A DNA stretch of 64,000 nt from an uncultured Peptococcaceae bacterium (GTDB lineage: Bacteria; Bacillota; Dehalobacteriia; UBA4068; UBA4997): positions 2,531 through 66,530 of the forward strand of contig CANQPG010000005.1 in NCBI GenBank assembly GCA_947625705.1, read 5' to 3'. Every line of letters starts with the position of its first letter. Position 1 is the stretch's first letter. The notes below the pieces were generated by a model. That model was not told the DNA's origin, did no database searches, and worked only from the letters and a program-made list of their open reading frames with translations. This document shows positions 9,441 through 62,434 of this stretch, piece after piece. The translations under genes and the position numbers were made by a program.

Positions 9441-9478
9441 AAAAAGCCCCGTTTCCCAAAAGCTTGGGAAACGGGGCT
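9441..9478 (-). terminator. Rho-independent terminator ending the giant-adhesin operon
   Basis: On the minus strand: GAGCCCCGTTTCCCAAGCTTTTGGGAAACGGGGCTTTTTGT, immediately after the stop at 9486. Confidence 0.65.
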
Positions 9479-9485
9479 CATTTAC

Positions 9486-12400
9486 TTAGGTCACGATAAA
9501 GTTGAAATGGCACTGTGCCAGCGGAGCCGTGCCCTGCCGCAGCTCAAAATAGACGCGGTAAGTGCCGGGCGTCATTCCGGCCGGCAATATCAGCTCACCG
9601 GAAAGGCCGTCAGCCGACATGGTATACGTCCAGCCGCTCGTCACAAAATCGGTGTAGCTGGCGTCTTCCGGTTTGGTGCCGGTCTTCCGCTTAACCGCGG
9701 TCAGCACGATACTTTCCCCGTCCGCCGGCGGTTGATCCGGTGTGATCCTGAACTCCAGGCTGCCGCCGGCAGCGCTGTCCACCAGCTGGCTGGCGCCGGC
9801 CGCCGGTTTGGCCACCATGCCCCTGCCATAGGAGGCGGCTTCGCCCCCACCGGATGCGGTCAATGCCAAATCGGGCGCGGCGGCGGAAGCAGCTTTAATA
9901 CTGCCGCTTTGGCAGATAGGCAGCGGGAAAAGCTCTGCCTTAACCGTTGTGCTTTCGTCCGGCGCGGCAAAGTCCCATTTTACCGCGGCGGTCTTGCCCT
10001 GCGTCAGCTGTGTTAAGGGCAGGAACACCGCGCCGTCGCCGACAATCAGATCAAGCTTCGTGCCGCCGGTATTGGCGGCTGCAACCTCCCCTGCCGCCGC
10101 ACCGGAAAGCCCGGTGAGCCGGATCAGCGAGCCGTCCATATAGTCCCAATCACCGGTGGGCGCCGTCACGGTAAGGGTGGTATCCGACCACGACATCGCC
10201 CCGTCCTCGGGCAGATCTGCCAACTTAAACGGCACTTCGCAGGTGGCGCAGCTGCCGGTGGGAAATTCCAGCGAGAAATAATATTCCCCGGGGTCAAGAC
10301 CGCTGTCTCGGAAATCCAGCAGGAAAAGCAGCGATTTGTCCACCACCGGCTGATTTTGCAGCGGCGGCTGCCATGGCCCCCGCCCGCGCACGTTGATCAG
10401 GTCGGTGGCTCTGATGGTTCCGTTCATGCCGCCGCTCTTAACATACCACCTGGGGTTGGCCGGATACGTGAGGTCGGCCATCAATATCCGGATCGGCGTG
10501 GTCACGACCTCGCCGGTGGAAGCGTTTTTCACCGAGATTTGGGGGAAACGTTCCGCGGCGTCGCCCTCGGTCAAAATGGGGGTATAGTTCAAAACCGTCT
10601 CCACGGTGATCGCGCCATTGGGCGCGACGGTGGGAGTAGTCAAATCAGGGGAATAAAACGTGCCATACTGCCGCCCAGCCTTAGCCCGCCCCGTCGATGT
10701 GCCCTCGCCCTGACCCTGGATCTCCACCTCAATGGTAAAGCGGCCGCGGCTGTCAGATGTCTCAGGCTCGCTCTTTTCATGCGCCAGCAGCGTGATGCAG
10801 ATCGTGCCGCCGGCCATTGTGCGGTTCGAGTACGAGAGATCAAAAGTGAAATACGGCAGGCCTTCAACCTTGGTTACCGGATAATGCGGCTGGGTATGCT
10901 GATAAATGATTTCGCCCACGTTGGGGTCAACAGTGCCGTCCGCATTGGTTTTATTCACAATATTGATATAGTGCATCTTGTCATGCCAAAGGTCGTCGTT
11001 TTGCAGCACATACATGGAGAGGGCTTGTGCCTGCGGGCTGCCCGCGGTGACGGGAGCAAGGTCTTTGGTGAGGATCGGCGTAAACTGCTCCAGATTGGGG
11101 TCAACGGGAACAAATACCGTGTCTTTGCGCACCGAAAGCGGCAGCGGAAACGTCAAGGTATCCTGATAATAGCCGTTGGCGTCCGGTGTGGTATCCTTAA
11201 GCTGCATCACCACGCGGGTTTTCACCGTGCGGCCGCCCAGCTGCCAATAATGATAACTTGCCGTCGCACCGGAATGAAGCGAAAGCCCCTCGGGCATCGT
11301 CTGATCCGGATCGGCCACGAACGCGCCGGTATTGATCTGCACGCCGTTTTCGTCCATGCCGTCAGGATCGCCGATATCGCTTTGCGTATTGGCGTGAATA
11401 AAGACGCCGTGATCCTCGGTATCCCCCTCGGAGCCCACCCAGCGCAGCGTGGTGACGCCCTTGACCTCGCCGTATGTCATCGTCTGGGTGCCGTTGGATA
11501 TCACCTTGGTGCCGATGATCAGCAGCTTGCCCGCCTGAATGGTGAGGACGTTGCCGTCTGCTTGCTCCGCCGGCGTGGCGCCGTCTTCCTTATAACTGCC
11601 GAAATTCGCCACCTCGTTGAGCTCGGTGTTGGCCGTCAGCTGCGATTTGACCAGTCTCACTTCCCCCCGCACCTGGGCGATGGAAAAGTCCAGATTGGTG
11701 CCGTCCACCTTATCGGTGGCGCCGGTCAAAGTGAGGTTACAGTTTTCAATGGTCACGGTATCGGCACGCTGCAGCGAATCGATCTCGCCGCTGAGGTTTT
11801 TCACATTGAGCGTGCGGGTGCCGCTGACCCGCGTCAGGTTACCGGAGCCGAAAATGCTGCCGCCGATGGTAACGTCGCCGGCGGTTTGCTCCACGTTAAC
11901 GGACGAATCGCCAAAGACGAGGAATTTTTCCTCATTGAATGTGGTGCCCTGGCCGTTGCAGCCGCCATAGATGGTCTTTTCCACGGTCACCGCCCCGGTA
12001 TCCGACGTAATATTCACAGCAGTGTCCCCGGTGATACGCGCCATGCTGGAGCCGCCGAACACCCTGAGGCCGATCCGGCCGCCCGAGATGTTAACGGTGC
12101 TGCTGCCAAAGACGGCGCCCAAGCCCTTGCCGCTGCCGACGCCGCTGCCGCCGCCGAACACGTCCCCGCTGATGAAACTCGTCTGCGCAACCGTGACGGT
12201 CGCGGAGCCGCCCACCGGGTTGGTTATTACCGCGGTTTCGTCAGTGTTGAACGTGCCCAAGCCCACCTTGCCGCAATAGCTGCCGCCGTAAACGCTGCCC
12301 AAAATCCTGCCGCCGGAGATCAGCACATTGGTCAAAACCGTGTTGGCGTCGGCGTTAAAGCCCCTGCCCTCCATGCCGATGGTGCCCAGCGAGCCGCCGC

Positions 12401-15400
12401 CATAGACATTGCCGTTGGCCACACTGCCGTCAATGCTTTCCTTGCCCACGGTGCCGCCGCTGATGCTAACGGTAGCAGAACGAGCCACCGCGCCGATGAT
12501 ATCGTCGGTGATATCCTCATTAATTTGCAGACCCTGGCCGCCGCCGTAGATATTCCCCGCGATGTCGCCGCCGGAGACTTCCACTTTGGTGGAGCCGCCG
12601 GCGCCGGCGTCGTCCCCCGCGTCAGTGATAACATTCTGCACCACGGCCTGGTCGCCGCCGCCGTAAACATTGCCGGTGACCAGGCCTCCCGATACAGATA
12701 CCGCTGTATCCCCGGTGACGGCGGCAGTCTCGGAATAACCGCCGCCATAAACATTACCCTGCACCGTGCCGCCCTGTACGGTAACGGCAGTATTGCCGGT
12801 AAGCTCGGCCTTATTGCCCCCGCCATAGACATTGCCGCTCACCGTGCCGCCGCGAATGTCAATAGTGGGGTTACCGGTGAGACTTGCCACATTGCCGCCG
12901 CCGTAGATATTGCCGCCCACACTGCCCTGATAAACGGTGACAAACGTGCTGCCGGTCATAGCGCTGCCGCTGTCCTCGACACCGGAAAGGCCGCCGAAGA
13001 CGCTGCCGGTCACACTGCCGCCCACCATGGTCAGTTTGGCGTCGCCATTGACCGTGCCCTCGTCCGAGGAAGCCACCAAATCGTTATTTATCGTGCCGCC
13101 GGCCATATAAACGCTGGAAAGACCGGAGGTGGAATTGCCTTTCTGATAGCCGCCGCCAAACAGGTAATTGGCCGAACCGCCCAGGAAGTGCAGATCACGG
13201 TTGCCCCCGGTCATGGAGACGCGGAAACTGCCGCCGTAAACGCGCTGATAATTGCCGCTGAAAATGGCCACCTGCGACGAGCCGTTAATAGCCGAAGTAC
13301 CGATACCGCCGCCAGTGCCGCCGAATATGTTGAGCGTGCCCGCAACCGTAATGCCATTGCCCATAATGAGCTTGTTGCAGGCGGCATAAAAAGCGTCAAA
13401 ATAATTCTCTCGCGTAAAGGAAGAATACTGCATCATATTGTCGTGCCCGGCGGACAACGCAATATCGCGGATAATCATCGGAGCTTCCAGTCTGGTAAAA
13501 ATATATTCCGAATCCAGCGAACAGGAATCCATGGAAAGCGTTCCGGTGCTGCCGGCCGCGGCAGCGGGATCAGTGCCGGTGACCGTACAAGGCAGTTCCG
13601 GTAAAGTATCGGTTCTGTTCCAATTAAAAATACTTCTCCCGCTCCAGCGCAGCTCGGCGTCGGTATCCACCACGATGATGTTCAGATACTTATCCTGCGG
13701 CGCCTGGCCGCCCGCATATACGCCAGTGAAATTGGCCATTGCCTGAGAAAGCGTATGCCCATAATCCCGCGATTGACTGTCAGCGCCGATGTCGCTCATA
13801 TACGCCGCAACACCCCAGTCCCACTGTGCCGTAAGCGTCGTGCCCGCCGGCACCAGATCGCCGGGGTCATAAGTGCTGCCGTCGTCGCCCAGCCAGCCGT
13901 CGAAGACGATAACCGTCTTGTATCTGCTGTCAGTCACACCGGGCGCGGCGATCTCCTGATTATCCGCGTCGTACAGTTTTTCCGGTGCGGCAAAGCCCAG
14001 ATCCTCCGGCCAGCGGGCATATGTCTGCTCGCCGTCCACGCAGGACATGGCAGCCGCCGTGCCGCTGCCCGTGCCGGGGGCAAACATCACCGTCGCCCCC
14101 TCCGCCAGAAGCACCAGCTCGTCGCTCCAGCAGGCGCATAAAATGGCCTCGCCGGCAGCCATATCCACCGGAAAAGCGTCGCCCGGGGCATATACCTGTT
14201 CACCCTCGGCGGTCAGCCAGCCCCGAAAAGTCCCCAACTCGGTGGCCGGGGCAAAAAATGCCGGGCAGGCCGGGGCGACCGCCTGACCGTTAAGCGCCAA
14301 AGCGCGCGCGGAAACCGCCTCGCCTGTTCCCGCGCCGGGAAGCAGATAAAGCGTAATTTCGCCGTCCGCCAATGTGTAGCCGGCCGCTTCGGCTGCGGCC
14401 AGGAATGTAAAATTCTCCGGGGCGCACAGGAACAAACCCGCCTGCCCGCCCGCGGCAGCGGGATAAAACACATCATTGCCCACCGTCTGCTGCGTGCGAA
14501 CTTCCACCCGATAATCGACCTGCGGTTCTTCGGTCTCCGCCGGCGTCGGTTCTTCGGTCTCGGCCGGTGCAGGTTCCTCGGTCTCCGCCGGCGTCGGTTC
14601 CTCAGTCTCCGCCGGTGCAGGTTCCTCGGTCTCCGCCGGTGCAGGTTCCTCGGTCTCCGCCGGTGCAGGTTTTTCGGTCTCGGCAGGCGCAGGCTCCTCG
14701 GTCTCCGCGGGCGTCGGTTCTTCGCTTTCCGCCGAGACATCATCTGCCGTTGCCGCCAAGGCAACTTTCGTACCGAATATGGCAGCAAGTATTGTGTTCC
14801 CGGTCGGGGTCTGCTCATCTTCCGCCGGCGCTGGCTGCTCGTCTTCCACCGGCGCCGGCTGCTCCTCTTCCGCCGGCGCGGGCTGCTCGTCTTCCACCGG
14901 CGCGGGCTGCTCATCTTCCGCCGGCGCGGGCTGCTCGTCTTCCGCCGGCGTTTGGTTCTCATCTTCCGCCGGCACTGGCTGTTCGTCTTCTGCCGGCGTT
15001 TGGTTCTCATCTTCCGCCGGCGTTTGGTTCTCATCTTCCACCGGCGCAGGCTGCTCATCTTCCGCCGGCACTGGCTGTTCGTCTTCTGCCGGCGCCGACT
15101 GCTCGTCTTCCGCCGGCGTTTGGTTCTCATCTTCCGCCGGCGCTGGTTCTTCCTCCTCGATCGGCTCCATCACGTCAGTCGGGTCAACGATCACAATGGG
15201 CGCAGATGTCGCAGGAGTGGTCACGACCTCCTCCAGCGATGTGAAATCATTAAATATGCAGGTAAAGTGCGGAGCTGCTGCCGCGTCCGCGCCGGAAAAG
15301 CAGCCGTCGCCCAATTCCAGCAGGCTGGCAGGCAGCGTCAATGTGCCCGTCAGGTTATAGCAGCCGTAGAACAAATAATCCCCCAGGCCGGTGACCCCCT

Positions 15401-15662
15401 CCGGTATCACCACCGCGGTGATCCGGTCGGCATATGGCGCCAGCGGTGCGGTTTCCGGGGTAAAATCATCGCTTGACCCCGTCCCCTCCAGCGTCAAAAC
15501 CCCGGTGGTGGATAAAACGGCGGTAAGCTCCGCCCCCACGGGGATACGCTCCGCCTCGTCCTCGGCGGTTACCACCGTAAACGACGTGAGGAATACACTG
15601 GTCAGCAAAGAAATGATCAGCAGAACCGACGTCAGCCGCTGCAATGACGTATATTGCCGCAT
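9486..15662 (-). CDS. Giant (2058 aa) secreted adhesin-like protein. Domains in order: signal peptide, BspA-type leucine-rich repeat, two acidic tandem-repeat arrays (PAEDEQPA x~15 and PAETEEPA x~9), a long Gly-rich predicted parallel beta-helix region (recurring NVYGGG / IYGGG motifs) and C-terminal Ig-like beta domains.
   Basis: ORF 9486..15662 with a consensus-like RBS. N-terminus MRQYTSLQRLTSVLLIISLLTSVFL. Repeats are visible in the protein and as 24-bp DNA repeats. It is the last gene of the sipW operon and is followed by a terminator. Confidence 0.85.
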   Translation of the reverse strand: MRQYTSLQRLTSVLLIISLLTSVFLTSFTVVTAEDEAERIPVGAELTAVLSTTGVLTLEGTGSSDDFTPETAPLAPYADRITAVVIPEGVTGLGDYLFYGCYNLTGTLTLPASLLELGDGCFSGADAAAAPHFTCIFNDFTSLEEVVTTPATSAPIVIVDPTDVMEPIEEEEPAPAEDENQTPAEDEQSAPAEDEQPVPAEDEQPAPVEDENQTPAEDENQTPAEDEQPVPAEDENQTPAEDEQPAPAEDEQPAPVEDEQPAPAEEEQPAPVEDEQPAPAEDEQTPTGNTILAAIFGTKVALAATADDVSAESEEPTPAETEEPAPAETEKPAPAETEEPAPAETEEPAPAETEEPTPAETEEPAPAETEEPTPAETEEPQVDYRVEVRTQQTVGNDVFYPAAAGGQAGLFLCAPENFTFLAAAEAAGYTLADGEITLYLLPGAGTGEAVSARALALNGQAVAPACPAFFAPATELGTFRGWLTAEGEQVYAPGDAFPVDMAAGEAILCACWSDELVLLAEGATVMFAPGTGSGTAAAMSCVDGEQTYARWPEDLGFAAPEKLYDADNQEIAAPGVTDSRYKTVIVFDGWLGDDGSTYDPGDLVPAGTTLTAQWDWGVAAYMSDIGADSQSRDYGHTLSQAMANFTGVYAGGQAPQDKYLNIIVVDTDAELRWSGRSIFNWNRTDTLPELPCTVTGTDPAAAAGSTGTLSMDSCSLDSEYIFTRLEAPMIIRDIALSAGHDNMMQYSSFTRENYFDAFYAACNKLIMGNGITVAGTLNIFGGTGGGIGTSAINGSSQVAIFSGNYQRVYGGSFRVSMTGGNRDLHFLGGSANYLFGGGYQKGNSTSGLSSVYMAGGTINNDLVASSDEGTVNGDAKLTMVGGSVTGSVFGGLSGVEDSGSAMTGSTFVTVYQGSVGGNIYGGGNVASLTGNPTIDIRGGTVSGNVYGGGNKAELTGNTAVTVQGGTVQGNVYGGGYSETAAVTGDTAVSVSGGLVTGNVYGGGDQAVVQNVITDAGDDAGAGGSTKVEVSGGDIAGNIYGGGQGLQINEDITDDIIGAVARSATVSISGGTVGKESIDGSVANGNVYGGGSLGTIGMEGRGFNADANTVLTNVLISGGRILGSVYGGSYCGKVGLGTFNTDETAVITNPVGGSATVTVAQTSFISGDVFGGGSGVGSGKGLGAVFGSSTVNISGGRIGLRVFGGSSMARITGDTAVNITSDTGAVTVEKTIYGGCNGQGTTFNEEKFLVFGDSSVNVEQTAGDVTIGGSIFGSGNLTRVSGTRTLNVKNLSGEIDSLQRADTVTIENCNLTLTGATDKVDGTNLDFSIAQVRGEVRLVKSQLTANTELNEVANFGSYKEDGATPAEQADGNVLTIQAGKLLIIGTKVISNGTQTMTYGEVKGVTTLRWVGSEGDTEDHGVFIHANTQSDIGDPDGMDENGVQINTGAFVADPDQTMPEGLSLHSGATASYHYWQLGGRTVKTRVVMQLKDTTPDANGYYQDTLTFPLPLSVRKDTVFVPVDPNLEQFTPILTKDLAPVTAGSPQAQALSMYVLQNDDLWHDKMHYINIVNKTNADGTVDPNVGEIIYQHTQPHYPVTKVEGLPYFTFDLSYSNRTMAGGTICITLLAHEKSEPETSDSRGRFTIEVEIQGQGEGTSTGRAKAGRQYGTFYSPDLTTPTVAPNGAITVETVLNYTPILTEGDAAERFPQISVKNASTGEVVTTPIRILMADLTYPANPRWYVKSGGMNGTIRATDLINVRGRGPWQPPLQNQPVVDKSLLFLLDFRDSGLDPGEYYFSLEFPTGSCATCEVPFKLADLPEDGAMSWSDTTLTVTAPTGDWDYMDGSLIRLTGLSGAAAGEVAAANTGGTKLDLIVGDGAVFLPLTQLTQGKTAAVKWDFAAPDESTTVKAELFPLPICQSGSIKAASAAAPDLALTASGGGEAASYGRGMVAKPAAGASQLVDSAAGGSLEFRITPDQPPADGESIVLTAVKRKTGTKPEDASYTDFVTSGWTYTMSADGLSGELILPAGMTPGTYRVYFELRQGTAPLAQCHFNFIVT
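14524..14735. repeat. Tandem array of ~9 x 24-bp coding repeats (PAETEEPA units) inside the giant adhesin gene
   Basis: Seen directly: the unit ggttc(t/c)tcggtctc(c/g)gccgg(c/t)g(t/c)(c/a)g is iterated. Confidence 0.8.
14805..15165. repeat. Tandem array of ~15 x 24-bp coding repeats (PAEDEQPA/PAEDENQT units) inside the giant adhesin gene
   Basis: Seen directly: the unit ctggctgctcgtcttccaccggcg is iterated with minor variants. Confidence 0.8.
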
Positions 15663-15696
15663 CGTGTATCCCTCCTTTCGCCGGGGTCAATCAAAA

Positions 15697-16596
15697 TCAG
15701 TTGGTCGCCGCGGGCGCTTCGGCAACGGTATATGTAAAATCGCTCTCGCTGTAAACGTCCTCGGTATTCCTTTTCAGCAGAACCAGCGAGACCGTGCCCT
15801 GCGCGGGGATCAGCAGCGTACCCGTACCGGTGGCGTCAGTCGCCTGGGTCTCCCAGGTCGGATCCGGCACCAGCCGCATATCCTTATCCCGGGAATCCTC
15901 GGCCAGCAGATAAAACTCGCTGACCTTCAGCTTCAGACCCTCCACCAAGCAATCCTTTTGGCCGGTATTGTAAAACGTCACAGCCACCGCGCCATAGCTG
16001 CCTTTGCGGTCGGTCACTTTCATCACCACGGCGCTGTCCGCTGCCGCCAACGCCACCTGGGCGGTCAGCGTTTTGGCGTAAGGCGCGGTGGAGACCACGC
16101 TCACGGTCACCTCGTCAGTCCCGTCGGCGCCGAACGCTGCCACCGGGATCAGGCAGGTTATCGTCCTGTCGTTGACCGCCTTGCCGGCGATGGTTCCGCC
16201 GCTCCCGGTGCTGCCGCCGTCGTTCCAGGTAACGTCCACCGTATCGCCCGCCTGATTGACCGCGGCGCAGGTGTACATGATATCATTTTGGGTGGGAAAA
16301 TCCGCCACCGCATAATTCTTCAGCGTAAATGTGAAAGGCACCGTTTTGCCGCTTTCGTCGGGCGAGATACGGTGCAGCGTGCCGTCCAGCTCGCTGCTGG
16401 TAAAATAGAAATCCCCCGCCGTCACCAGCGAGTTATTCGACCAGTCCTGCAAATAACGGGCAGCGGTCACGCCCAGCATGGCCGCTGCGGCAAGGACTGC
16501 CGCCAGCAGCAGCAGACGCACCGCCGGCGGGCGGTGGAGAAAAGACGGGCGTCCGGCCGCCGTTTCGGCAGATTTTCGGGCTTGCTGCTGCGCCAT
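15697..16596 (-). CDS. Secreted TasA/BsaA-like protein 3, a putative SipW-cognate substrate. It has a long basic N-region, a hydrophobic core, and then the motif TAA|RY.
   Basis: N-terminus MAQQQARKSAETAAGRPSFLHRPPAVRLLLLAAVLAAAAMLGVTAARYLQDWSNNSLVTAG, which resembles SipW-cognate signal peptides (TIGR04088-like ...A.Y..D...NN...AG). The mature part is beta-rich and Thr/Gly-rich. RBS GGGGGAGGAAAA lies upstream. It is in an operon with sipW. Confidence 0.6.
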   Translation of the reverse strand: MAQQQARKSAETAAGRPSFLHRPPAVRLLLLAAVLAAAAMLGVTAARYLQDWSNNSLVTAGDFYFTSSELDGTLHRISPDESGKTVPFTFTLKNYAVADFPTQNDIMYTCAAVNQAGDTVDVTWNDGGSTGSGGTIAGKAVNDRTITCLIPVAAFGADGTDEVTVSVVSTAPYAKTLTAQVALAAADSAVVMKVTDRKGSYGAVAVTFYNTGQKDCLVEGLKLKVSEFYLLAEDSRDKDMRLVPDPTWETQATDATGTGTLLIPAQGTVSLVLLKRNTEDVYSESDFTYTVAEAPAATN

Positions 16597-16644
16597 TTTT
16601 CCTCCCCCTCTCCGCTGATATAACAGGTTGATATCCGCCGCTGC

Positions 16645-17229
16645 TCAGGCGTCGGTGCTGAGCCGCTGCCGCGCCAGCACGGTAACGGTCACCAGATCGA
16701 TCTCGTCGGCATAGCCCGCGTCGCTGGCCGCCTGCGGCCAGTTGACCGTCAGCGTATAAGTGTGCTCCTGCCTGGCCAATTTGCCGTCGGCGGCGTCCTG
16801 CACCAGCGGGAAAGCGCCGCCGGTGAGCGTTTGGCTTTTGGCGCCGCCCGTCAATATCGTTCCCGTATCGGTGACGGTGCCGGCAGTGCCCGCGTCCCGG
16901 GCTGCGGCAAGCTCAAACTCCAGCGGCAGATTGCCGGTGGTCTCCACCGTAATGTCATAATCCAACGCCACCTCGCTGACGGCGTCATCTTTATAGTTCA
17001 CAACTTTGAATTGCAATGTTTGGGGGTCGCTGCCGGGGAACATGCCCTCAATGACCATGCGGATAGGTTCGCCGCCGCCCGCCGCCATTGCGGCCACCGT
17101 GGCCGTGCCGCTGCCGCCCGTCGTGGCGGCATACCGCGCCAGGGTCACCGAAACTATCAGGGTGGTGACCAGCCCCAGATAGATCAGATAGAGCCAGAGC
17201 CGACTATACTTTTTTCCCGGTATCCTCAT
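16645..17229 (-). CDS. Secreted TasA/BsaA-like protein 2, a putative SipW-cognate substrate. It carries the motif TLA|RYAATTGGSGTATVAAMA.
   Basis: N-terminus MRIPGKKYSRLWLYLIYLGLVTTLIVSVTLARYAATTGGSGTATV. The start overlaps the 3' end of sipW1 (translational coupling). It shares the motif with protein 1 (TLAKYASEASGTATATVAKWA). Confidence 0.6.
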   Translation of the reverse strand: MRIPGKKYSRLWLYLIYLGLVTTLIVSVTLARYAATTGGSGTATVAAMAAGGGEPIRMVIEGMFPGSDPQTLQFKVVNYKDDAVSEVALDYDITVETTGNLPLEFELAAARDAGTAGTVTDTGTILTGGAKSQTLTGGAFPLVQDAADGKLARQEHTYTLTVNWPQAASDAGYADEIDLVTVTVLARQRLSTDA

Positions 17230-17719
17230 GCTGCTCCGCCCCCCGTTTCTCCGGCAGAAAAATCAATATCGCGCCCCCGGCCGCCAAAAGCAATATGCCA
17301 AGGGGCTTTTGCAGCAACATCAACAGCTCGCCCGCCCCGGGCAGGCACAGCACCACCCGCCCCAGCACGTCCGCCGGGGGCACCGCCGCATCGTCGGGGG
17401 TGTTGTTGGCGTCGCCGCGGGTACGGTAAGCCGCCGCCGTTTTCTCGATAATTCGGTGGGTCACCACCGCGCCCTCCTGCCGAAAGGTGATGATATCCCC
17501 CACCGCATAATCCGCCTCGCGGTGGGCGATGACCATTGAACCGGCGGGGAGCGTTGGCTCCATGCTGCCGGTGGTGACGATCATCGGATAAAATCCCAGC
17601 ACGTGCGCCGGTTCCTGGTGCAGCACAAAGCGGGAAACCAGCAGCCCCATATCAACGGCCAGCACCAACGCCAGCAGGCAGACAAGTATGCCCCGGATAA
17701 ATCTCAGCAGCGTCCTCAT
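17204..17719 (-). CDS. sipW: Signal peptidase I, SipW/Sec11 (ER/archaeal) type, copy 1
   Basis: Motifs TGSMEPT, VTHRII and RGDANNTPD match the B. subtilis SipW boxes (SGSMEP / THRIV / GDNN). It has an N-terminal TM segment and a C-terminal TM segment. Confidence 0.85.
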   Translation of the reverse strand: MRTLLRFIRGILVCLLALVLAVDMGLLVSRFVLHQEPAHVLGFYPMIVTTGSMEPTLPAGSMVIAHREADYAVGDIITFRQEGAVVTHRIIEKTAAAYRTRGDANNTPDDAAVPPADVLGRVVLCLPGAGELLMLLQKPLGILLLAAGGAILIFLPEKRGAEQHEDTGKKV

Positions 17720-19026
17720 ACTGCGTCCTCCACCCGTATGTTCAGATGCAGGGTATAGATCCGGCCGTCGCGGCTGCCGAGAGCGGTGTCCACAACGTCG
17801 TTGCCGTCAAAAGGCCAGCGCCATTCAATGCGATAGCGCCGCTCACCGCTCGCCGCCAGCTGCACTGCACTGCTGACCGTTTCGCTGTCCAGAGCGGCAG
17901 TCTGCCAGTCCGTAAGCCCCCTGGGGGTCAGTTCATCAGTGGCCAGGCGGTATTCCAGGGGAATATGAAAATCCCCCTCCTTGATACCCAGGGTAAATTT
18001 GATGGCTCGGCTGCGGCCGTTTTTCACCCGAAAAAGATAATACCCCTCCGAGCCCGGCGCGATCAGCCTCTCGCCGTAGCCGTCCAACGGGCGGAACAGG
18101 TCGATCTCGGCCTGCTGCGTCCAGGTCTGCCAGCTCGCGCGGTCATCGCTGCGGCTGACCTCGACGGTTCCGGGGTCAGTATCGGGCGGCGTGGGCGGTT
18201 TGGGGTCAGGGTCGGTTCCCGAACCACCGCCGCCACCTCCGCCATCATCAGCACCGCCATCATCAGGCGCGGGCGCCGGCTTATCGGTGGGCTTATCGTC
18301 CGGTTTATCACCCGGTTTGTCCATCGGCTTGTCCGTGGGTTGTTCCGTCGGCTGCTCGCCGGGCTTGTCCGTCGTCTGCTCGCCGGGCTTAGCCCCCGGC
18401 GGTTCCGCCGGCGTTGTGCCGGGGCTGGCCGCCGCCTCATCTGCCTCACGGGTGCCTCTAAGCTCCACGTCAAGCCCGCCGTCGCCGTCCAATGTCAGTT
18501 CCACGTCCACCTCAACGGTCACGACCTTAATGTGCAGCACGCACACCATTGCTTCATAGTCAATGTAAGCGTCGCTCGCCGCGTCGCGAACCACGCGAAT
18601 GGTGCGGCCGGCCAGCACATTGCCCGCCGGATCCAGCACCGATAGCTCATGCTCCCCCGGCTCCACCTCATCAAAACGAAAATGCCCCGTCTCACTCAGG
18701 CGGGCGTAACGGGGCTCGCTATGGAGTTCCACCGAACCCTGCGAAAAAGGCGTGCCGTTGGTATAATGCACCACGCCCACAATGCTGATCCGCTCCGTCA
18801 GCTCCCCGGTTTGCGTGTTATCCGCAGGCGGCTCGGGCTGATCTGCGGGCGTAAGAACGATGGTGTCGATCAGCGCACCGGAGCGCCCGGGATCGGTGGT
18901 TCTGCCCAGCAAAAAGCCCACAATGCAGGACGTGGCCAGCATCAGAAACAGCAACAGCAGCAGCAAAGGCAGAATGATCCTGCGCTTTTGCCGTGCCGCC
19001 GTTTTTGCCTGAGCAGCTGTGTTCAA
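17716..19026 (-). CDS. Membrane-anchored accessory protein. Domains in order: N-terminal TM segment, transthyretin/carboxypeptidase-regulatory-like beta-sandwich domain, Pro/Asp/Lys-rich linker (DKPGEQPTEQPTDKP...), and a C-terminal globular domain. It is possibly a TapA-like fibre anchor or assembly factor.
   Basis: ORF 17716..19065. The probable real start is TTG at 19026, preceded by AAGGAGGAA plus a 7-nt spacer. The N-terminus is then MNTAAQAKTAARQKRRIILPLLLLLLFLMLA. A GSVEL...GHFRFDEVEPGEHELSV beta-sandwich motif is present. It lies between the two sipW modules. Confidence 0.55.
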   Translation of the reverse strand: MNTAAQAKTAARQKRRIILPLLLLLLFLMLATSCIVGFLLGRTTDPGRSGALIDTIVLTPADQPEPPADNTQTGELTERISIVGVVHYTNGTPFSQGSVELHSEPRYARLSETGHFRFDEVEPGEHELSVLDPAGNVLAGRTIRVVRDAASDAYIDYEAMVCVLHIKVVTVEVDVELTLDGDGGLDVELRGTREADEAAASPGTTPAEPPGAKPGEQTTDKPGEQPTEQPTDKPMDKPGDKPDDKPTDKPAPAPDDGGADDGGGGGGGSGTDPDPKPPTPPDTDPGTVEVSRSDDRASWQTWTQQAEIDLFRPLDGYGERLIAPGSEGYYLFRVKNGRSRAIKFTLGIKEGDFHIPLEYRLATDELTPRGLTDWQTAALDSETVSSAVQLAASGERRYRIEWRWPFDGNDVVDTALGSRDGRIYTLHLNIRVEDAV

Positions 19027-19144
19027 AATCGGTTCCTCCTTAGGGAAAAACACAAATAAGATCAACGCAAAAAGTTTCGGCTCTCGGCGGAAAACGTCCC
19101 CAAAACGTGCTCCGCCGAAGGCCGAAGCCTCCGGCGAAGTAAGT

Positions 19145-19771
19145 TTAGGAAACTTTCTGTTCAGCCTTGATGGTAACAGGAATGTTGTAAGTCAGCGTGC
19201 CGGCAGCGGAATCAGTGCCAACCTTGGTGTCAAGTTTGTCCCCTGTAAGAGTGTTATCATAATCGGTCGCGTCCCACTTCCAGTAAACAGTCTGAGTAGA
19301 CTTCTTGGAAGCGGCATTAGTCAGCACATCGCCGGTCAGGGTGGCTTTGCCGCCGGTCACGGTCAGGGGAGTATTGCAAGTGGAATCGGAATAGAACTTG
19401 ACCGGTGCCTTAGCAATAGCAGGATCGCTCATGTCCATTTCGATAGTGTAAGTAAACGCAACCTCGGTGCCGGTGCCGTCCACCGCCAGCTGGAACGAGC
19501 CGGTGGTGCCGGGAGCGATCTTATCGGCCGCCACCAGGTTGGCATTTTCCTTAGCCGTGTCTTTCAAATTCAACGCGATCTGGGTCGTATCGTCGTACTC
19601 TGTGGAACCCCCGTCAGTGAACTTGATCGCCCACTTGGCCACCGTCGCCGTAGCAGTACCGCTGGCCTCGCTGGCATACTTGGCCAGCGTGCCCGCCGTC
19701 AAACTCATGGTGACCAGACACAACACCAGCGTCAGGACGGTAAGCCGGCCGACAATTCCTTTCTTTTTCAT
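19145..19771 (-). CDS. Secreted TasA/BsaA-like protein 1, a putative SipW-cognate substrate and likely the major subunit. It carries the motif TLA|KYASEASGTATATVAKWA.
   Basis: N-terminus MKKKGIVGRLTVLTLVLCLVTMSLTAGTLAKYASE. RBS AGGAGGAAACGAACATG. It lies immediately downstream of sipW2. The mature part is beta-rich and Thr/Gly/Asp-rich. Confidence 0.6.
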   Translation of the reverse strand: MKKKGIVGRLTVLTLVLCLVTMSLTAGTLAKYASEASGTATATVAKWAIKFTDGGSTEYDDTTQIALNLKDTAKENANLVAADKIAPGTTGSFQLAVDGTGTEVAFTYTIEMDMSDPAIAKAPVKFYSDSTCNTPLTVTGGKATLTGDVLTNAASKKSTQTVYWKWDATDYDNTLTGDKLDTKVGTDSAAGTLTYNIPVTIKAEQKVS

Positions 19772-19800
19772 GTTCGTTTCCTCCTATGTTATAAATTGTA

Positions 19801-20460
19801 TTATTTTGACCGCGTTTCCGCGGCTTGGAGCCCATCTTCGGTGTTCTCGCCCCGCTCCAATTCTTTCAGGCGGGCTTCCAGCTCCTGCGTCCGCGCTTTT
19901 TCGCGCCGGGCGTCCATGCTGCGGCGCAGCACGTCCCACCCCACCAGGATCAGCAGCGGGCAGATGATAAACACGATCATGCCGGTGGTGGTCTGCATAA
20001 ACATGGCAAGCGACCCCAGCTTCGCAATATGTATGCCGGTGTAGACGCCCTCTACCTGTTCGGGACTTACTGCCAACTGGTCGGCAGTGTTATTGGCGTC
20101 GCCCCGGGTGACATAGCGCACCTCGCCGTCCACCTGCGTCACCTCGGCGATACGGTGGGTAACCGCAATGCTTTCACCGGTAAGGTAGCAAATCACATCG
20201 CCTTGAGAAAGCCCCGCCGGGTCGTCGGTATGGCGAATGAAAATCATATCGCCGGCGGCAAATGTCGGCTCCATCGAGTCGGAAAGACATATCACCGGGC
20301 TGTAACCCGCCACGCTGGGAATATGGTCAGCGTCGGTATAGGTTTTGGTGATCAGAACCAGATTGATCAGAATGATCGGAATAAAAATCAGGCAGAGAAT
20401 ACCGCCAAGCACATTGATCAGAACCCCGCCGGAGCTCTTTTTTTCTTGCCGAGACGTCAT
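19801..20460 (-). CDS. sipW: Signal peptidase I, SipW/Sec11 (ER/archaeal) type, copy 2. It is the first gene of the operon.
   Basis: Motifs SDSMEPT, VTHRIA and RGDANNTAD. The ORF track starts at TTG 20544. The ATG at 20460 is preceded by AAGGAGG plus a 5-nt spacer, which gives MTSRQEKKSSGGVLINVLGGILCLIF. Confidence 0.85.
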   Translation of the reverse strand: MTSRQEKKSSGGVLINVLGGILCLIFIPIILINLVLITKTYTDADHIPSVAGYSPVICLSDSMEPTFAAGDMIFIRHTDDPAGLSQGDVICYLTGESIAVTHRIAEVTQVDGEVRYVTRGDANNTADQLAVSPEQVEGVYTGIHIAKLGSLAMFMQTTTGMIVFIICPLLILVGWDVLRRSMDARREKARTQELEARLKELERGENTEDGLQAAETRSK

Positions 20461-20580
20461 TGCGGCCTCCTTCCAACGGGGACACATACCCGCTGTAAAT
20501 GTTATCCTGCCCGGCTGCCTTTGGCTTGGGCGCCGCCGGGTCAATTATGCGGGCAAAATGCAGCTATACCCCATAATATT

Positions 20581-20609
20581 ATTATAAATGTACAATTCGG
20601 CTGTGTCAA
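20581..20609 (-). promoter_or_regulatory. Consensus sigma-A-type promoter for the sipW-fibre-adhesin operon: TTGACA-17 nt-TATAAT
   Basis: Seen directly on the minus strand: cTTGACAcagccgaattgtacattTATAATaata. It lies about 115 nt upstream of the sipW2 ATG. Confidence 0.55.
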
Positions 20610-39488: not shown

Positions 39489-39971
39489 CTATCGCGTAAT
39501 GCCCAGCGCCGAAAGCACCTCGCGCTGACGGGCAAACTGCTGCTCCTCCGCCTGCGCGGATAGCTCGTGGTCATAACCCAGCAGGTGCAGCAGGCCATGC
39601 ACGAACAGGAAGCAGAATTCCCGCTTTTGGCTGTGGCCAAACTCCCGCGCCTGCGCCGCCATCTGCGGCATTGATATCACGATATCGCCCAGCGTCGCCC
39701 CCGCCGGTATCGGCTCGTCACACAAAAACTGCGGGAATGAAAGCACGTCGGTCGGTCTATCCACGCCGCGGAATTCCCGGTTCAGCTGATGTATGCCGGG
39801 GGCATCGGTCAGCGTCAGCGAAACCTCCAGCCCCGCGGGAATACTCCCCGCCGGGCGTATGCCACGCCCCAGATTTTCGGTCAAAAGCGTCTCCGCGCCC
39901 ACGGCCAGCAGCGCCGCCGCCCAGCTTTTCGGCAGCAGCGTTTTGGTCTCATTGCTCAAAATCAGCTTCAT
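39489..39971 (-). CDS. ybeY: rRNA maturation endoribonuclease YbeY
   Basis: 160 aa with the HGLLHLLGYDH zinc-binding motif. Confidence 0.9.
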   Translation of the reverse strand: MKLILSNETKTLLPKSWAAALLAVGAETLLTENLGRGIRPAGSIPAGLEVSLTLTDAPGIHQLNREFRGVDRPTDVLSFPQFLCDEPIPAGATLGDIVISMPQMAAQAREFGHSQKREFCFLFVHGLLHLLGYDHELSAQAEEQQFARQREVLSALGITR

Positions 39972-42265
39972 GCGTCTTCACTTTCCGCCGCCGGTTTTGC
40001 GTCGGCAGTTTTTTCGGCGGCTTTCTCGGCAGTTTTATCGGCAGCCTTTTCCGAATTCTTTTCGGCGGCTTTTTCGGCTTCTTTTTCCGCCTTTTTCGTC
40101 TTGGCGGCCAGCTCCTTGGCGAGCTGCTCCGGATAAGGCAGACGGTAATGCTTCGCCCCGGCCAGAATGGTGGCAAACGCCGACGCGATCACGTCCAGAT
40201 CGCGGAAAGTCAGCGCGCACTGGTTCAGCTGGCCGTCGTTCAATTTCCCCTTGATGATATCGCGCACCATGCCCTCGATCTGCCCCGGCGTGGGCGCGGT
40301 CATCGACTGCACCGCCGCCTGGCAGCTGTCCGCCAGCATCACCAGCGCGGCCTCGCGCGTCTGGGGGATCGGCCCGGGATAGCGGTAATCCTCCTCGCGC
40401 ACTGGCGCGGTCTCGATATCCTGCGCCTTGGCGGCCTCCTGCGCCTTGTTGTAAAAGCCTTTCACCAGACTGGTGCCGTGGTGCTGCTCGATAATGTCGA
40501 TAATTTCTTTCGGCAGCTTATAGCTTCGCGCGATATCCGCGCCCTCCTTGGTGTGGGACGTGATAATGAACGTGCTTAAGCTGGGCTGCAATTTGTCGTG
40601 CGGGTTTTCGCCCGGCTTCTGGTTCTCCACAAAGAAGTTGGGGCGCTTCATCTTGCCGATATCGTGGAAATATGACGCGACGCGCACCAAAAGGCCGTCC
40701 GCGCCGATCCTGTCCGCCGCCGCCTCGGCCAAATTGCCCACCAGAATACTGTGGTTATAGGTGCCGGGTGCTTCCACCATCAGCTTTTTCAGCAGCGGGT
40801 GGTTGATATTGGAAAGCTCCATCAGGCGAATATCGGTGGTGATGGCAAACGCGCTCTCCAAAAGCGGCAGCGTCCCTACCATTAAAATGACGGAGACCAC
40901 GCCGTTAATTAACGACATCAGAAGCGCGATATACAGCGCCGCCCGGTCATAATTCCACATGAAGCACCATGAAACGCTGACCAGCATATACGCAATGGTT
41001 ATATTCGCCACGGCCAGCGCGTAATAGCTGCGCGAGTTCATACGCCCCACCTGCAAAACGCCCACCAGGCCGCCCACCAGCGCCGCGCAGACATATAGCA
41101 TATGCGCGCCGCACATAATGCCGATGAAAACGCTGATGATCAGCGTGGCAAAGATGGCCGTCCGCTTGTTCACCAGCGCCGCCAGCAGCATGGCAAACGC
41201 CGGCACGGGTATGGCCAGCCCCAGCATCCAGTCCGTCGCCAGGGTGGAGTCGAATTTAATCAAGGTGATGACCCGCGCGATCAGCAGCATAACGATGAAC
41301 AGCAGTGCGATCAGGTTGATGTTGCCGACGCCGAGGTTGTTGTCGCCGCTCATCTTGGTGCAGTACATTTGCAGCAGCGCATAGCAGATGATGACCAGCA
41401 GCAGCAGGCCGATATACGCCTGCAAGCCGCTGCCCGGCTGCTGCAAGCCCACGGCCTCCAGCGTTTCCACATCGGCGGCAGTGACCACCGCGCCGCGCGT
41501 AATCAGCAGTTGGCCGGGATAGACCGTGATGGAGATGGGCTGCACGCTGCTGATCGCCTGCGAGATGGCGTCCATTGTCGCCACCTGATCAAACACATGC
41601 GTGGGCTTAAACTCCAGCAGCAGCATGGCCTGGCGCATGAAATTGGCCGCCCGGCCGCTCTGCGCGATGGCGTCGATGTTGGCGCGGCACTGCTCCTCCA
41701 CCTCCGGCAGAGCCGCTTCGTCAAACTCGCCCAGACCGTAGGCCGCGCTGACCGCGTTTTTCAGGCTGTTACGCAGCAGATTTTCGCCCGCGTCGTCCAG
41801 CCCCAGAAAATATTCCAATATCGCCTGGCTCGGCGGCTCGGCCGTCTCACCCTCCGCCGCCGGGGGCGTCAAAAGCTCGTTCAAATCCAGCAGCTTCGCC
41901 TCGTCCGCCGCGTCGGATACCCGCACGGCGTGCAGGGAATCAAACAGCGTATCCACCTGCACCTGCATATCCACGGCAACTTTTTCATCATATTTATAGA
42001 TCTGCTCCACCTCGCCCGCCGCCAGCTGCTGCGCCTGCTCGGTGTAGATCTGGCTGGTAAACGTGGTGGCGGTGCCGAAATAATAGACGTTGCTCGGCGC
42101 GATATCGCCCTCGGCGAGCGAAACTCTGTCCGCGAGAAAGCTGCTGGCCAATATCGCAAAGGTCAGCACGATCATCACCGCAAACCACAACCAGCCCAGC
42201 CGCGTAAAGCCCTGCCGGCGGTCGGCTTCGGCCAAATTGATCTTATTATTGCTCAAAACCGTCAC
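39968..42265 (-). CDS. 7TM-receptor with intracellular HD hydrolase (PgpH/YqfF-like HDIG protein). It has a C-terminal Lys/Glu/Ala-rich repetitive tail.
   Basis: Extracellular domain, a 7TM block, and an HD domain (HSILVGNLAEAAA...YFHDIGK). The tail is AEKEAEKAAEKNSEKAADKTAEKAAEK. Confidence 0.85.
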   Translation of the reverse strand: MTVLSNNKINLAEADRRQGFTRLGWLWFAVMIVLTFAILASSFLADRVSLAEGDIAPSNVYYFGTATTFTSQIYTEQAQQLAAGEVEQIYKYDEKVAVDMQVQVDTLFDSLHAVRVSDAADEAKLLDLNELLTPPAAEGETAEPPSQAILEYFLGLDDAGENLLRNSLKNAVSAAYGLGEFDEAALPEVEEQCRANIDAIAQSGRAANFMRQAMLLLEFKPTHVFDQVATMDAISQAISSVQPISITVYPGQLLITRGAVVTAADVETLEAVGLQQPGSGLQAYIGLLLLVIICYALLQMYCTKMSGDNNLGVGNINLIALLFIVMLLIARVITLIKFDSTLATDWMLGLAIPVPAFAMLLAALVNKRTAIFATLIISVFIGIMCGAHMLYVCAALVGGLVGVLQVGRMNSRSYYALAVANITIAYMLVSVSWCFMWNYDRAALYIALLMSLINGVVSVILMVGTLPLLESAFAITTDIRLMELSNINHPLLKKLMVEAPGTYNHSILVGNLAEAAADRIGADGLLVRVASYFHDIGKMKRPNFFVENQKPGENPHDKLQPSLSTFIITSHTKEGADIARSYKLPKEIIDIIEQHHGTSLVKGFYNKAQEAAKAQDIETAPVREEDYRYPGPIPQTREAALVMLADSCQAAVQSMTAPTPGQIEGMVRDIIKGKLNDGQLNQCALTFRDLDVIASAFATILAGAKHYRLPYPEQLAKELAAKTKKAEKEAEKAAEKNSEKAADKTAEKAAEKTADAKPAAESEDA

Positions 42266-57813: not shown

Positions 57814-58719
57814 TTAATACCATGAGCCTTTACCACCCCAATAACCTGTTAGTTTCAACTCAAGCATACCACCATCATCATCAAAAGCTTGATAATAAAT
57901 GCTGCTATCAGCCAAATACCAGCAATCCTTCACCATATTATACAAATATATTTGATTACCTTCGCCATGTACAAATTGCCACTTTGCAACCAAATCGCCG
58001 GTGCGGTTATAAAAGCTGTATATTGAACCCAACAAATCAAGCGGAGTATACTTTGCAGGCGGGGCAACTTCTGCGCCTTGCCCCTCATATATCATGTATA
58101 TGCAGGTATTTATAATATCTTTGGTACGTATTGTTATGCACTGCTCCTCAGAAGATTTCTCTAACTTCATTGAATAAATAGGCTCGCCATCAATTGGTTG
58201 ACCCGGCAGAATAATTCTTACCACATCGGACTCATATTCAACCACACAATCAAGTTGTTCTGATAAGAAAGACAGCGGCAGCATGAGCTTTCTGTTTTTT
58301 AAATAGGGAACGCCACTCAATTCTTGCTCATACGTAAAATCCTTACATTCTAGCAGTTTTTGCAGAACAGATATGCCACTCTTCATATATGGCAATCTGC
58401 TCATTACCTGCATATAACGGCCTAGTGGTAGTTGAGGTAAGGATATTCTGATGGTTGCTTTTTGCTTACCACATACCAGTTCAATGCAACAATTGCTTTT
58501 GCTAATTATAAACACATCCCCATCTTGATGAAGATCTGCACCAATTTTCTTGGTAAGCGATTGTATTGGAACATAAATAAGTCCGTCATTCGTTTCAGGA
58601 GGCACGTCAAAATCCAATGCCTCACCATCAATACCAATATGCAACGCCCATGCAGGTGTTGCGGTATAAAACAAAATTATACTCAATATGACAGCAAACC
58701 ATAATTTTATTCTTCTCAT
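57814..58719 (-). CDS. Secreted protein with a copper-amine-oxidase N-terminal-like ('stalk') domain. Cassette 1, gene B.
   Basis: Signal peptide MRRIKLWFAVILSIILFYTATPAWA. The motif NDGLIYVPIQSLTKKIGADL resembles the CuAO-N domain signature (..yvPlR.la..lGa.v.w). It is AT-rich. Confidence 0.55.
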   Translation of the reverse strand: MRRIKLWFAVILSIILFYTATPAWALHIGIDGEALDFDVPPETNDGLIYVPIQSLTKKIGADLHQDGDVFIISKSNCCIELVCGKQKATIRISLPQLPLGRYMQVMSRLPYMKSGISVLQKLLECKDFTYEQELSGVPYLKNRKLMLPLSFLSEQLDCVVEYESDVVRIILPGQPIDGEPIYSMKLEKSSEEQCITIRTKDIINTCIYMIYEGQGAEVAPPAKYTPLDLLGSIYSFYNRTGDLVAKWQFVHGEGNQIYLYNMVKDCWYLADSSIYYQAFDDDGGMLELKLTGYWGGKGSWY

Positions 58720-58727
58720 TTTATTAC

Positions 58728-59864: not shown

Positions 59865-59867
59865 AAA

Positions 59868-60110: not shown

Positions 60111-60207
60111 AACGATCAAACTGAATGTCCGACGAGACTAATCAAGCGAAAATGCAGCGCACTGTTATCTGCCTTTACAAATATTATATTATACCCCATA
60201 GTATTAG

Positions 60208-61176: not shown

Positions 61177-61191
61177 AATAATCGCCTTTAT

Positions 61192-62415: not shown

Positions 62416-62434
62416 AAAAGAACCCTCCTTAAAA

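Follow-up and report, generated by a model that had tools for sequence, protein, structure and literature searches.

In ClfA and the Sdr proteins the number of repeats in the Ser-Asp R region sets the reach of the binding domain, and the repeat number of the collagen-like region does the same in BclA. The Xr region of Staphylococcus aureus spa is C-terminal and wall-proximal, it adjoins the LPXTG anchor and its octapeptide mixes basic and acidic residues. Within the spa X region both the copy number and the sequence of the imperfect 24-bp units differ between lineages (PMC5816571). For operon context we took the sipW-bsaA-bsaB-bsaC genes of Clostridium perfringens and the tapA-sipW-tasA genes of Bacillus subtilis as the comparison (bioRxiv 10.1101/2024.11.04.621531). 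Here we describe two arrays of 24-bp repeats inside the gene of a 2058-aa secreted protein, found in a 64,000-nucleotide stretch of DNA (the window) from an uncultured Peptococcaceae bacterium. The bacterium is related to Candidatus Avidehalobacter, of the class Clostridia. These arrays are an ordinary repeat-built spacer of a common kind. Our main reading, to which we give a probability of roughly 70%, is that they are the coding sequence of a disordered polyanionic spacer linker whose copy number changes slowly, as in spa, with no phase switch. The features discussed below are collected in Table 1.

Table 1. Positions in the window of the repeat arrays, the gene that holds them and the surrounding operon.
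Feature	Position	Strand	Description or basis
2058-aa secreted protein, holds both arrays	9486..15662	minus	ORF, translation and full-length orthologues
Signal peptide, aa 1-33	15564..15662	minus	hydropathy; predicted cleavage between VTA and EDE
BspA-type LRR (LRR_5) module, aa 41-146	15225..15542	minus	Pfam and PDB profile matches
Hypervariable linker, acidic and proline-rich, 237 aa (aa 147-383)	14514..15224	minus	conserved flanking motifs
Conserved post-linker region, aa 384-780	13323..14513	minus	conserved across orthologues, two motifs
Glycine-rich repeat region, aa about 780-1290, putative beta-solenoid	11793..13325	minus	motif count, 23-26% glycine
Array A, PAETEEPA type	14520..14735	minus	9 units of 24 bp, aa 310-381
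Inter-array non-repeat island TGNTILAAIFGTKVALAATADDV	14736..14804	minus	aa 287-309, hydrophobic, from translation
Array B, PAEDEQPA/PAEDENQT/PVEDEQPA types	14805..15140	minus	14 units of 24 bp, aa 175-286
Array B degenerate first unit PIEEEEPA (15th)	15141..15164	minus	whole array B is 14805..15164
299-aa protein	15697..16596	minus	weak paralogue of other small operon proteins
194-aa protein	16645..17229	minus	weak paralogue of other small operon proteins
Second SipW-type peptidase	17204..17719	minus	NCBIfam TIGR02228
449-aa protein	17716..19065	minus	weak paralogue of other small operon proteins
208-aa protein	19145..19771	minus	weak paralogue of other small operon proteins
SipW-type signal peptidase	19801..20544	minus	NCBIfam TIGR02228
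Sigma-70-type promoter match, TTGACA-17-TATAAT, 12/12	20581..20609	minus	5' of first operon gene; consensus match only
Intrinsic terminator, 16-bp stem and T-rich tail	9444..9479	minus	just past the stop codon of the 2058-aa gene

The initial annotation had reported two arrays of perfect or near-identical 24-bp repeats, in about 9 and 15 copies, encoding PAETEEPA and PAEDEQPA/PAEDENQT peptides. Parsing the units in the minus-strand frame bore out the two arrays, as 9 units in array A and 14 units plus one degenerate unit in array B, and it confirmed the peptides; array A begins with SAESEEPT and continues with PAETEEPA, PAETEEPT, PAETEKPA and PAETEEPQ. Tandem Repeats Finder gave a period of 24 in both cases, at 14524-14734 for array A (8.8 copies, score 261, 83% matches) and at 14811-15146 for array B (14.0 copies, score 399, 81% matches). 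The 24-bp periodicity far exceeds chance, with a lag-24 identity of 0.744 against 0.400 +/- 0.019 (maximum 0.459) in 500 codon shuffles. When the whole window was searched, the consensus units were found nowhere outside the arrays. Two plus-strand open reading frames that lie over the arrays (14567-15244 and 14779-15360) were rejected as by-products of the GC-rich repeats, since what the orthologues conserve is the frame on the minus strand.

The repeats are not perfect, however, nor are they near-identical. We found a mean pairwise identity of 80.6% among the 9 units of array A, seven of them distinct, and of 78.5% among the 15 units of array B, where 11 of 14 are distinct; the units thus average about 79-81% identity with a few exact copies, and units of array A share 62% identity with those of array B. 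The identical units form one set of three in array A and sets of three and of two in array B. Exact direct repeats reach at most 43 bp, the length of the matches offset by 24 bp and by 168 bp; another exact match, of 41 bp, is offset by 96 bp, and array B shows a 96-bp higher-order period. These identical units and long exact matches are visible recent duplications. Between units, pS is 0.54 and pN/pS 0.16 in array A, and the corresponding values in array B are 0.31 and 0.52. Imperfect, in-frame 24-bp units with such values of pS are the signature of arrays that have gone without recent homogenisation. The octapeptide pattern P-A-E-x-E-x-P-A is better conserved than the array DNA.

The linker that contains the arrays is strongly acidic. 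It consists of 25% E, 8% D, 19% P and 10% T with only two K/R residues, for a net charge of -76 or about -0.3 per residue, and the description of the repeats as an in-frame acidic proline-rich segment therefore stands. The linker reached no Pfam threshold; the closest profile, DUF3432 at E = 0.0075, is below the cut-off and spurious. The Pfam PT profile gave no hit anywhere in the 2058-aa protein. In the AlphaFold model the linker has no secondary structure and a low pLDDT, which is weak evidence of disorder as the model is of low confidence throughout. Similar PAPAETE-type linkers were found in unrelated secreted proteins.

On the N-terminal side of the linker lie the signal peptide and the LRR module. 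The sole segment of the protein with hydropathy above 1.5 is aa 6-34, and AlphaFold places a helix at residues 5-27. When the whole protein and eight of its segments were scanned with Pfam and NCBIfam, LRR_5 was the single family matched, at 22.6 bits for the whole protein against a cut-off of 27.7 and at 27.7 bits, equal to the cut-off, for aa 1-150 alone. A family profile matched the solved LRR protein 4h09 in the PDB at E = 9e-13, as well as 4fs7 and 4gt6. Multi-repeat LRR proteins in very large numbers match at profile positions 41-126. On the other side, the post-linker region carries the motif F-x-G-W...Y-x-P-G-D twice, at aa 479 and 587, and matched no Pfam family. The glycine-rich region holds 13 copies of [VIL][YF]GG[GSCL] spaced by 26 aa or more, which suggests a putative beta-solenoid fold; it matched nothing in Pfam or the PDB. 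A search of the protein for LPXTG, SLH or any other anchor found none, the only hydrophobic segment being N-terminal.

The repeats had been taken as a stalk between an N-terminal LRR tip and a beta-helix. Part of this holds: an LRR module does precede the linker and a glycine-rich, solenoid-like region does follow it. However, about 400 residues (aa 384-780) separate the linker from that region, and its assignment as a beta-helix lacks a Pfam or PDB match, while the AlphaFold model of aa 1-812, built on a 4-sequence alignment, has a mean pLDDT of 46.9, too poor for a fold search or for firm conclusions about disorder. The LRR module is indeed N-terminal, but its place as the distal tip is an assumption given that no anchor was found.

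Homologues were sought by exact protein look-up, in genome contigs and in metagenome contigs, with the whole protein and with the linker alone. These searches yielded four orthologues at 43-59% identity (P0001, P0002, P0003 and L001), all full-length and aligning with the 2058-aa protein on either side of the linker. No near-identical copy spanning the arrays was found in the protein, genome-contig or metagenome-contig collections searched. A profile of aa 1-812 run against 1.84 billion representatives returned 120,062 hits, swamped by LRR_5 proteins; beyond the LRR, only P0001 and P0003 matched. Outside the LRR module, the other 1,900 aa or so have matches in just three entries of the protein collection and at a single genome locus. 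Protein clustering had placed the 2058-aa protein under a junk 56-aa representative.

Using conserved flanking motifs in the five orthologues as boundaries, we found that the linker is 237 aa long in this protein, against 28, 87, 102 and 287 aa in the other four. The claim of a length-variable spacer is thus upheld between species. The orthologue linkers are rich in proline and glutamate with few K/R, except for the shortest, which at 28 aa is not strongly acidic. At the same position the longest linker, that of L001, has an 18-bp array (ESVVPT) and a 36-bp array (GLDETQGTGEEP) unrelated to the 24-bp units, and the linkers of P0001 and P0002 hold vestigial 18-bp repeats. Therefore repeats were born independently more than once at the linker site. 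Comparison of the five proteins shows that linker length differs between species through repeated birth and growth of repeats.

In our main reading, the polyanionic, proline-rich and disordered linker would tether a small binding module, the N-terminal BspA-type LRR, to the large body of the protein. Charge repulsion and regularly spaced prolines would hold the chain expanded, so that it could serve as a spacer, or flexible tether, that determines how far the LRR module reaches. The linker would have grown by in-frame tandem duplication of the 24-bp unit, both as single units and as several units at once (the 96-bp period). Point mutations would then have decayed the units, leaving most of them old and synonymously diverged beside a few recent exact copies. 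Copy number would shift over evolutionary time from species to species, and perhaps among strains too, as in the staphylococcal spa X region, and would not serve as a high-frequency phase-variation switch. The hydrophobic 23-aa island (aa 287-309) that interrupts the linker, for which the orthologues offered no confidently aligned counterpart, counts against the spacer explanation.

The initial annotation had instead proposed contingency-locus behaviour, in which frequent slippage or recombination would produce stalk-length variants throughout a clonal population. We consider this unlikely. Some in-frame tandem units are exact copies that lie adjacent or close to one another, with a longest match of 43 bp, and the lengths of the orthologue linkers differ greatly. 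Similarly, strains differ in the spa X region, whose 24-bp units are imperfect (PMC5816571). However, frequent unequal exchange would homogenise the units, which share only about 79-81% identity with pS of 0.31 and 0.54, and the collections of proteins and contigs held no near-identical array-spanning copy. The arrays also differ from a short, essentially perfect tract of homopolymer or of units of about 1-9 bp, their units being 24 bp and imperfect; as multiples of 3 inside an open reading frame, steps of this size cannot turn expression on or off. Rapid switching is thus unsupported, because the units are in frame and mutually diverged.

The arrays had also been named as a likely site of assembly collapse. 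We found that every 44-mer within 14401-15300 is unique, and a collapse in this assembly is therefore unlikely. Two ENA assemblies contain the same strain, but in no more than the short contigs L017 and L018, of about 1.8-2 kb. L018, which comes from an independent assembly at 1.9x coverage, reaches only 7 nt into array B, ending within its first canonical unit. A break at the array edge would favour a contingency locus, but it is weak evidence for instability since contigs end everywhere at 1.9x.

Quite unlikely is a reading in which the linker is kept for a specific chemistry and not for spacing, for example to bind Ca2+, other cations or cationic polymers of the host or matrix, or to take O-glycosylation on the threonines of PAETEEPT and PAEDENQT. 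The extreme charge density (-76 over 237 aa), the 10% threonine and a peptide better conserved than its DNA, with a pN/pS of 0.16 in array A, are all consistent with it. However, the linkers of the orthologues are unrelated in sequence, and one is 28 aa long without strong acidity, therefore a specific conserved chemistry is dispensable for the family. Furthermore the linker here matches no known binding motif or family. We regard as very unlikely a selectively neutral expansion in a tolerant linker, with arrays whose length and sequence would both be of no consequence, or in part an assembly artefact with a wrong copy number: non-homologous orthologue linkers of down to 28 aa, the metagenome-type source assembly and the short, fragmentary contigs of the same strain would fit it, but pN/pS values below 1 (0.16 and 0.52) together with the conserved P-A-E-x-E-x-P-A point to a constrained peptide, four of the five orthologues retain a long linker that is acidic and rich in proline, and the unique 44-mers and unit-specific substitutions make mis-assembly unlikely at a k of 45 or more.

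The 2058-aa gene is the last of its operon and is preceded by six genes (15697..20544). The two SipW-type peptidases score 80.1 and 98.9 bits with TIGR02228 against a cut-off of 51.85, and both L001 and L014 have the same gene order, likewise with SipW-type peptidases. Secreted proteins encoded nearby have repeat linkers resembling this one: the 449-aa protein has a PT repeat at 18313-18390 and scores 24.7 bits with Pfam PT against a cut-off of 26.2, and another carries A/E/P-rich repeats at 2032-2155. Comparison of the small operon proteins with TasA and BsaA, by sequence and by fold, gave no significant match, and the TapA model gave weak hits in only 6 of 53 homologues. A broader proposal, which we hold to be doubtful, is that this conserved seven-gene operon (two SipW-type peptidases, four paralogous beta-sandwich proteins and the LRR/glycine-rich giant) is undescribed and may build a donor-strand fibre like those of TasA and BsaA with a giant adhesin. 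The linker would then be a hot spot of repeat birth, 24-bp here and 18- and 36-bp in L001, that tunes the reach of the LRR between lineages.

Repeat-built proline-rich or acidic linkers are common in secreted bacterial proteins, and this one comes from a poorly sampled lineage of gut Clostridia. It shows cleanly how repeats were born independently at a single position among orthologues. The arrays could become a strain-typing marker like spa if the organism is studied further. They also illustrate how low-complexity repeats disturb both assembly, as in the contig that breaks off at the edge of the array, and protein clustering, as with the 56-aa representative. The SipW-type operon around the gene is more interesting than the arrays and may deserve follow-up.

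Compared with the known systems, the operon is like the bsa and tasA operons in that genes for small secreted proteins of beta-sandwich type and for a large accessory protein come after one or more SipW-type peptidase genes, although the large protein here is LRR/glycine-rich rather than a von Willebrand A protein. Like the BspA-type LRR proteins of gut anaerobes, the protein is similar to LRR_5 and to solved structures of that family in its N-terminal module, but those typically have many LRR_5 stretches and here there is about one, of roughly 85 aa. By a general analogy, a binding domain with a low-complexity repeat spacer is a design shared with ClfA/Sdr and BclA, which use SD dipeptides and GXX triple-helix triplets, respectively, and have defined anchors, whereas the units here are octapeptides. 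The linker also resembles other proline-rich, charged, low-complexity connectors of folded modules, such as the Pro/Thr- and Pro/Glu-rich clostridial linkers (PT repeat), the (EP)n of TonB and trypanosome procyclin; unlike the (EP)n dipeptides its repeat is eight residues long, the first and seventh being proline. Unlike spa Xr, the repeats here lie near the N-terminus in two separate arrays, are acidic throughout and adjoin no detectable cell-wall anchor; with N-proximal repeats and no anchor, a wall-spanning role as in spa Xr was rejected. What the two have in common is in-frame, imperfect 24-bp units that encode octapeptides and include variants (7 of 9 and 11 of 14 distinct here), set in a charged stretch of low complexity with prolines, within a secreted protein, which here has a signal peptide and an acidic proline-rich linker.

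Both tandem-repeat arrays claimed for the giant-protein gene by the initial annotation are present, but they are not perfect. We called the arrays with Tandem Repeats Finder and then parsed them in the reading frame of the giant protein. Tandem Repeats Finder reported two arrays of period 24, one at 14524-14734 (8.8 copies, 83% matches, score 261) and one at 14811-15146 (14.0 copies, 81% matches, score 399). The in-frame parse resolved them as array A, which opens with SAESEEPT and continues with the variants PAETEEPA, PAETEEPT, PAETEKPA and PAETEEPQ, and array B, composed of PAEDEQPA, PAEDENQT, PVEDEQPA, PAEDEQPV and similar units. The coordinates, copy numbers and peptides of the initial annotation match this parse and are therefore right. 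The units of array B, however, share a mean pairwise identity of only 78.5% and those of array A one of 80.6%, and the longest exact direct repeat in the arrays is 43 bp. Exact-copy units are limited to three plus two in array B and three in array A. Units of array A and array B are 62% identical and have the pattern P-A-E-x-E-x-P-A in common. The 24-nt periodicity is not due to chance; identity at lag 24 was 0.744 vs 0.400 +/- 0.019 in codon shuffles. We found no further occurrence of the consensus units elsewhere in the 64 kb window.

Features of the giant-protein gene and its operon (positions in the window)
Feature	Position	Strand	Remarks
Giant-protein ORF	9486-15662	minus	2058 aa
Array A	14520-14735	minus	9 octapeptide units, aa 310-381 (in-frame parse)
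Array B	14805-15140	minus	14 units, aa 175-286 (in-frame parse)
Degenerate unit PIEEEEPA	15141-15164	minus	N-terminal side of array B in the protein
Sigma-70 consensus match	20609-20581	minus	12/12; upstream of operon
SipW/archaeal-type signal peptidase	19801-20544	minus	TIGR02228 above cut-off
208-aa secreted protein	19145-19771	minus	weak paralogue
449-aa secreted protein	17716-19065	minus	weak paralogue
Second SipW/archaeal-type signal peptidase	17204-17719	minus	TIGR02228 above cut-off
194-aa secreted protein	16645-17229	minus	weak paralogue
299-aa secreted protein	15697-16596	minus	weak paralogue
Strong terminator	9479-9444	minus	downstream of operon

The units differ from each other at silent sites, with proportional synonymous differences of 0.31 in array B and 0.54 in array A and a pN/pS of 0.52 and 0.16, respectively. 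Most units are thus duplicates of old date whose silent sites have drifted and whose peptide pattern was retained. Recent duplicates are a minority, seen as the identical units, as exact matches (43 bp at offsets 24 bp and 168 bp, 41 bp at offset 96) and as a 96-bp higher-order period in array B. Judged from their sequence, the arrays look like a variable-number repeat region with slow turnover and not like a homogenised, actively slipping tract. High-frequency contingency-locus behaviour, which had been proposed for them, appears disfavoured by a repeat anatomy of 24-bp, in-frame and diverged units.

The arrays had also been named as a likely site of assembly collapse, which is unlikely in the window: no 44-mer between 14401 and 15300 occurs more than once, and therefore the copy number is probably correct. 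The same strain is present in two other ENA metagenome assemblies at ~1.8x coverage. One short contig (L017, ERZ27249265, 1963 bp) aligned inside 18200-20300 with one mismatch in 1963 bp, and the other (L018, ERZ27248994, 1807 bp) is identical to 15134-16940 and covers just 7 nt of array B's first canonical unit before it stops. This end is compatible with the repeats breaking short-read assembly, although at such coverage it proves little. A near-identical copy spanning the arrays was not found by exact protein look-up, by genome and metagenome scans, or by whole-protein and linker-only homologue searches; the metagenome scan returned weak LRR matches only. The giant protein is present in the protein collection, but an unrelated low-complexity sequence of 56 aa, …EQKKKKKKEKKRRN, represents its cluster (P0243/P0244). 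It is therefore invisible to a representative-based homologue search, which explains its missing self-hit. This misplacement may also hide close relatives.

We aligned five orthologues, namely the giant protein, three members of the protein collection (P0001, P0002 and P0003) and L001, a locus from an uncultured Oscillospiraceae MAG with the sample label 'Lapin'. The alignment is strongly conserved to aa 146 and from aa 384 onward, and nothing aligns between. This linker of 237 aa contains 25% Glu, 8% Asp, 19% Pro, 17% Ala and 10% Thr, and carries a net charge of -76 with just two Lys/Arg. Between the arrays the polyanionic linker is broken by a hydrophobic 23-aa island, TGNTILAAIFGTKVALAATADDV (aa 287-309, 14736-14804), for which no clear counterpart was found in the orthologues. 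In an AlphaFold model of aa 1-812 (mean pLDDT 46.9, poor) the linker is free of secondary structure, weak evidence in agreement with disorder.

N-terminal of the linker are a signal peptide, the sole hydrophobic segment of the giant protein, and a short BspA-type LRR module. With aa 1-150 scanned alone, Pfam LRR_5 scored 27.7 bits, exactly the cut-off. The family profile matches the solved LRR_5 proteins 4h09 (E = 9e-13), 4fs7 and 4gt6, and its positions 41-126 hit a very large number of LRR proteins with multiple repeats. C-terminal of the linker lie ~400 conserved residues with two F-x-G-W...Y-x-P-G-D motifs, which matched no known family. They are followed by a glycine-rich region (23-26% Gly) without a match in Pfam, NCBIfam or PDB, whose 13 copies of [VIL][YF]GG[GSCL], spaced at least 26 aa apart, fit a putative beta-solenoid, and then by ~750 more residues. 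The linker adjoins the LRR module as described, but ~400 residues separate it from the putative beta-helix, and its placement between LRR domain and beta-helix is therefore only loosely correct. No LPXTG, SLH or other anchor was found in the giant protein.

With ~-0.3 charge per residue, hardly any hydrophobics and Pro at positions 1 and 7 of the unit, the linker would be an expanded, flexible polyanion, and these properties support the proposed spacer role of the repeats as a likely mechanism. Contour length would grow by roughly 2.5 nm with every octapeptide, and we estimate that the whole linker could span tens of nanometres. Such a tether could give the LRR module reach and prevent it from collapsing onto the protein body or anionic cell surfaces.

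The orthologous sequences show that the length of the linker is clearly labile between species: P0003/L014 has 28 aa, P0001/L016 has 87 aa, P0002/L015 has 102 aa and L001 has 287 aa. The length variability that had been proposed therefore holds on an evolutionary scale. All orthologue linkers except the shortest are Pro/Glu-rich and nearly without Lys/Arg. At the same position L001 carries other arrays, in which 18-bp units code for ESVVPT-like hexapeptides and 36-bp units for GLDETQGTGEEP, and the P0001 and P0002 linkers contain only vestigial 18-bp repeats. Tandem repeats have thus arisen there independently.

Seven genes on the minus strand form the operon, with the giant-protein gene at its end, and L001 and L014 have the same gene order. 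The 194-aa protein matches the 208-aa protein with E = 4e-7, and three of the four small secreted proteins have an A-[KR]-Y motif past the N-terminal hydrophobic segment. The model of the 208-aa protein is a beta-sandwich (pLDDT 84); its best PDB fold matches, the donor-strand pilins FimG and CfaB and the Pyrodictium cannula fibre, are not significant (E 3e-3 or worse, TM ~0.3). The TapA model was weakly matched by 6 of 53 homologues, and neither sequence nor fold comparison gave a significant match to TasA/BsaA. In gene layout alone, the operon is similar to the Clostridium perfringens operon sipW-bsaA-bsaB-bsaC (bioRxiv 10.1101/2024.11.04.621531) and to TasA/BsaA-type fibre operons. We consider this SipW-type operon a more promising lead than the repeat linker. 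Its chromosomal neighbourhood includes AddAB, alanine racemase and GlyS; the last shares 91% identity with its counterpart in Candidatus Avidehalobacter gallistercoris, which places the source organism in Clostridia, near Candidatus Avidehalobacter.

Other repeats occur in the window. The gene of the 449-aa protein contains a separate 12/24-bp tandem repeat (18313-18390) encoding a Pro/Thr/Lys/Asp-rich linker (Pfam PT, 24.7 bits), within which the sole mismatch to L017 lies. Another secreted protein (~1-2230, minus), running off the window start, has Ala/Glu/Pro-rich 9-bp and 39-bp tandem repeats (Tandem Repeats Finder, 2032-2155) right behind the signal peptide. Acidic linkers built from repeats thus recur as a design in this genome. 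The gene of a 7TM-HD (7TMR-HDED/HD) membrane protein (39968-42265, minus) carries a 3' 12/24-bp tandem repeat (40002-40098) encoding a Lys/Glu/Ala-rich tail (AEKAAEKT…). GC falls from ~0.58-0.60 to 0.37-0.40 in the last 6 kb (58000-64000), a stretch that includes a YrpD-domain protein (61192-62415); possible explanations are horizontal acquisition of an island or a chimeric assembly.

The linker is real but ordinary, a repeat-built acidic linker of an already known type. By established knowledge, the repeat spacers closest to it in likely function are the Ser-Asp region of ClfA/Sdr, the collagen-like region of BclA, PT linkers and Glu-Pro spacers. In DNA anatomy the closest analogue of the arrays is the spa X region, whose imperfect 24-bp units differ between lineages in both number and sequence (PMC5816571), although the two are unlike in position, charge and anchoring.
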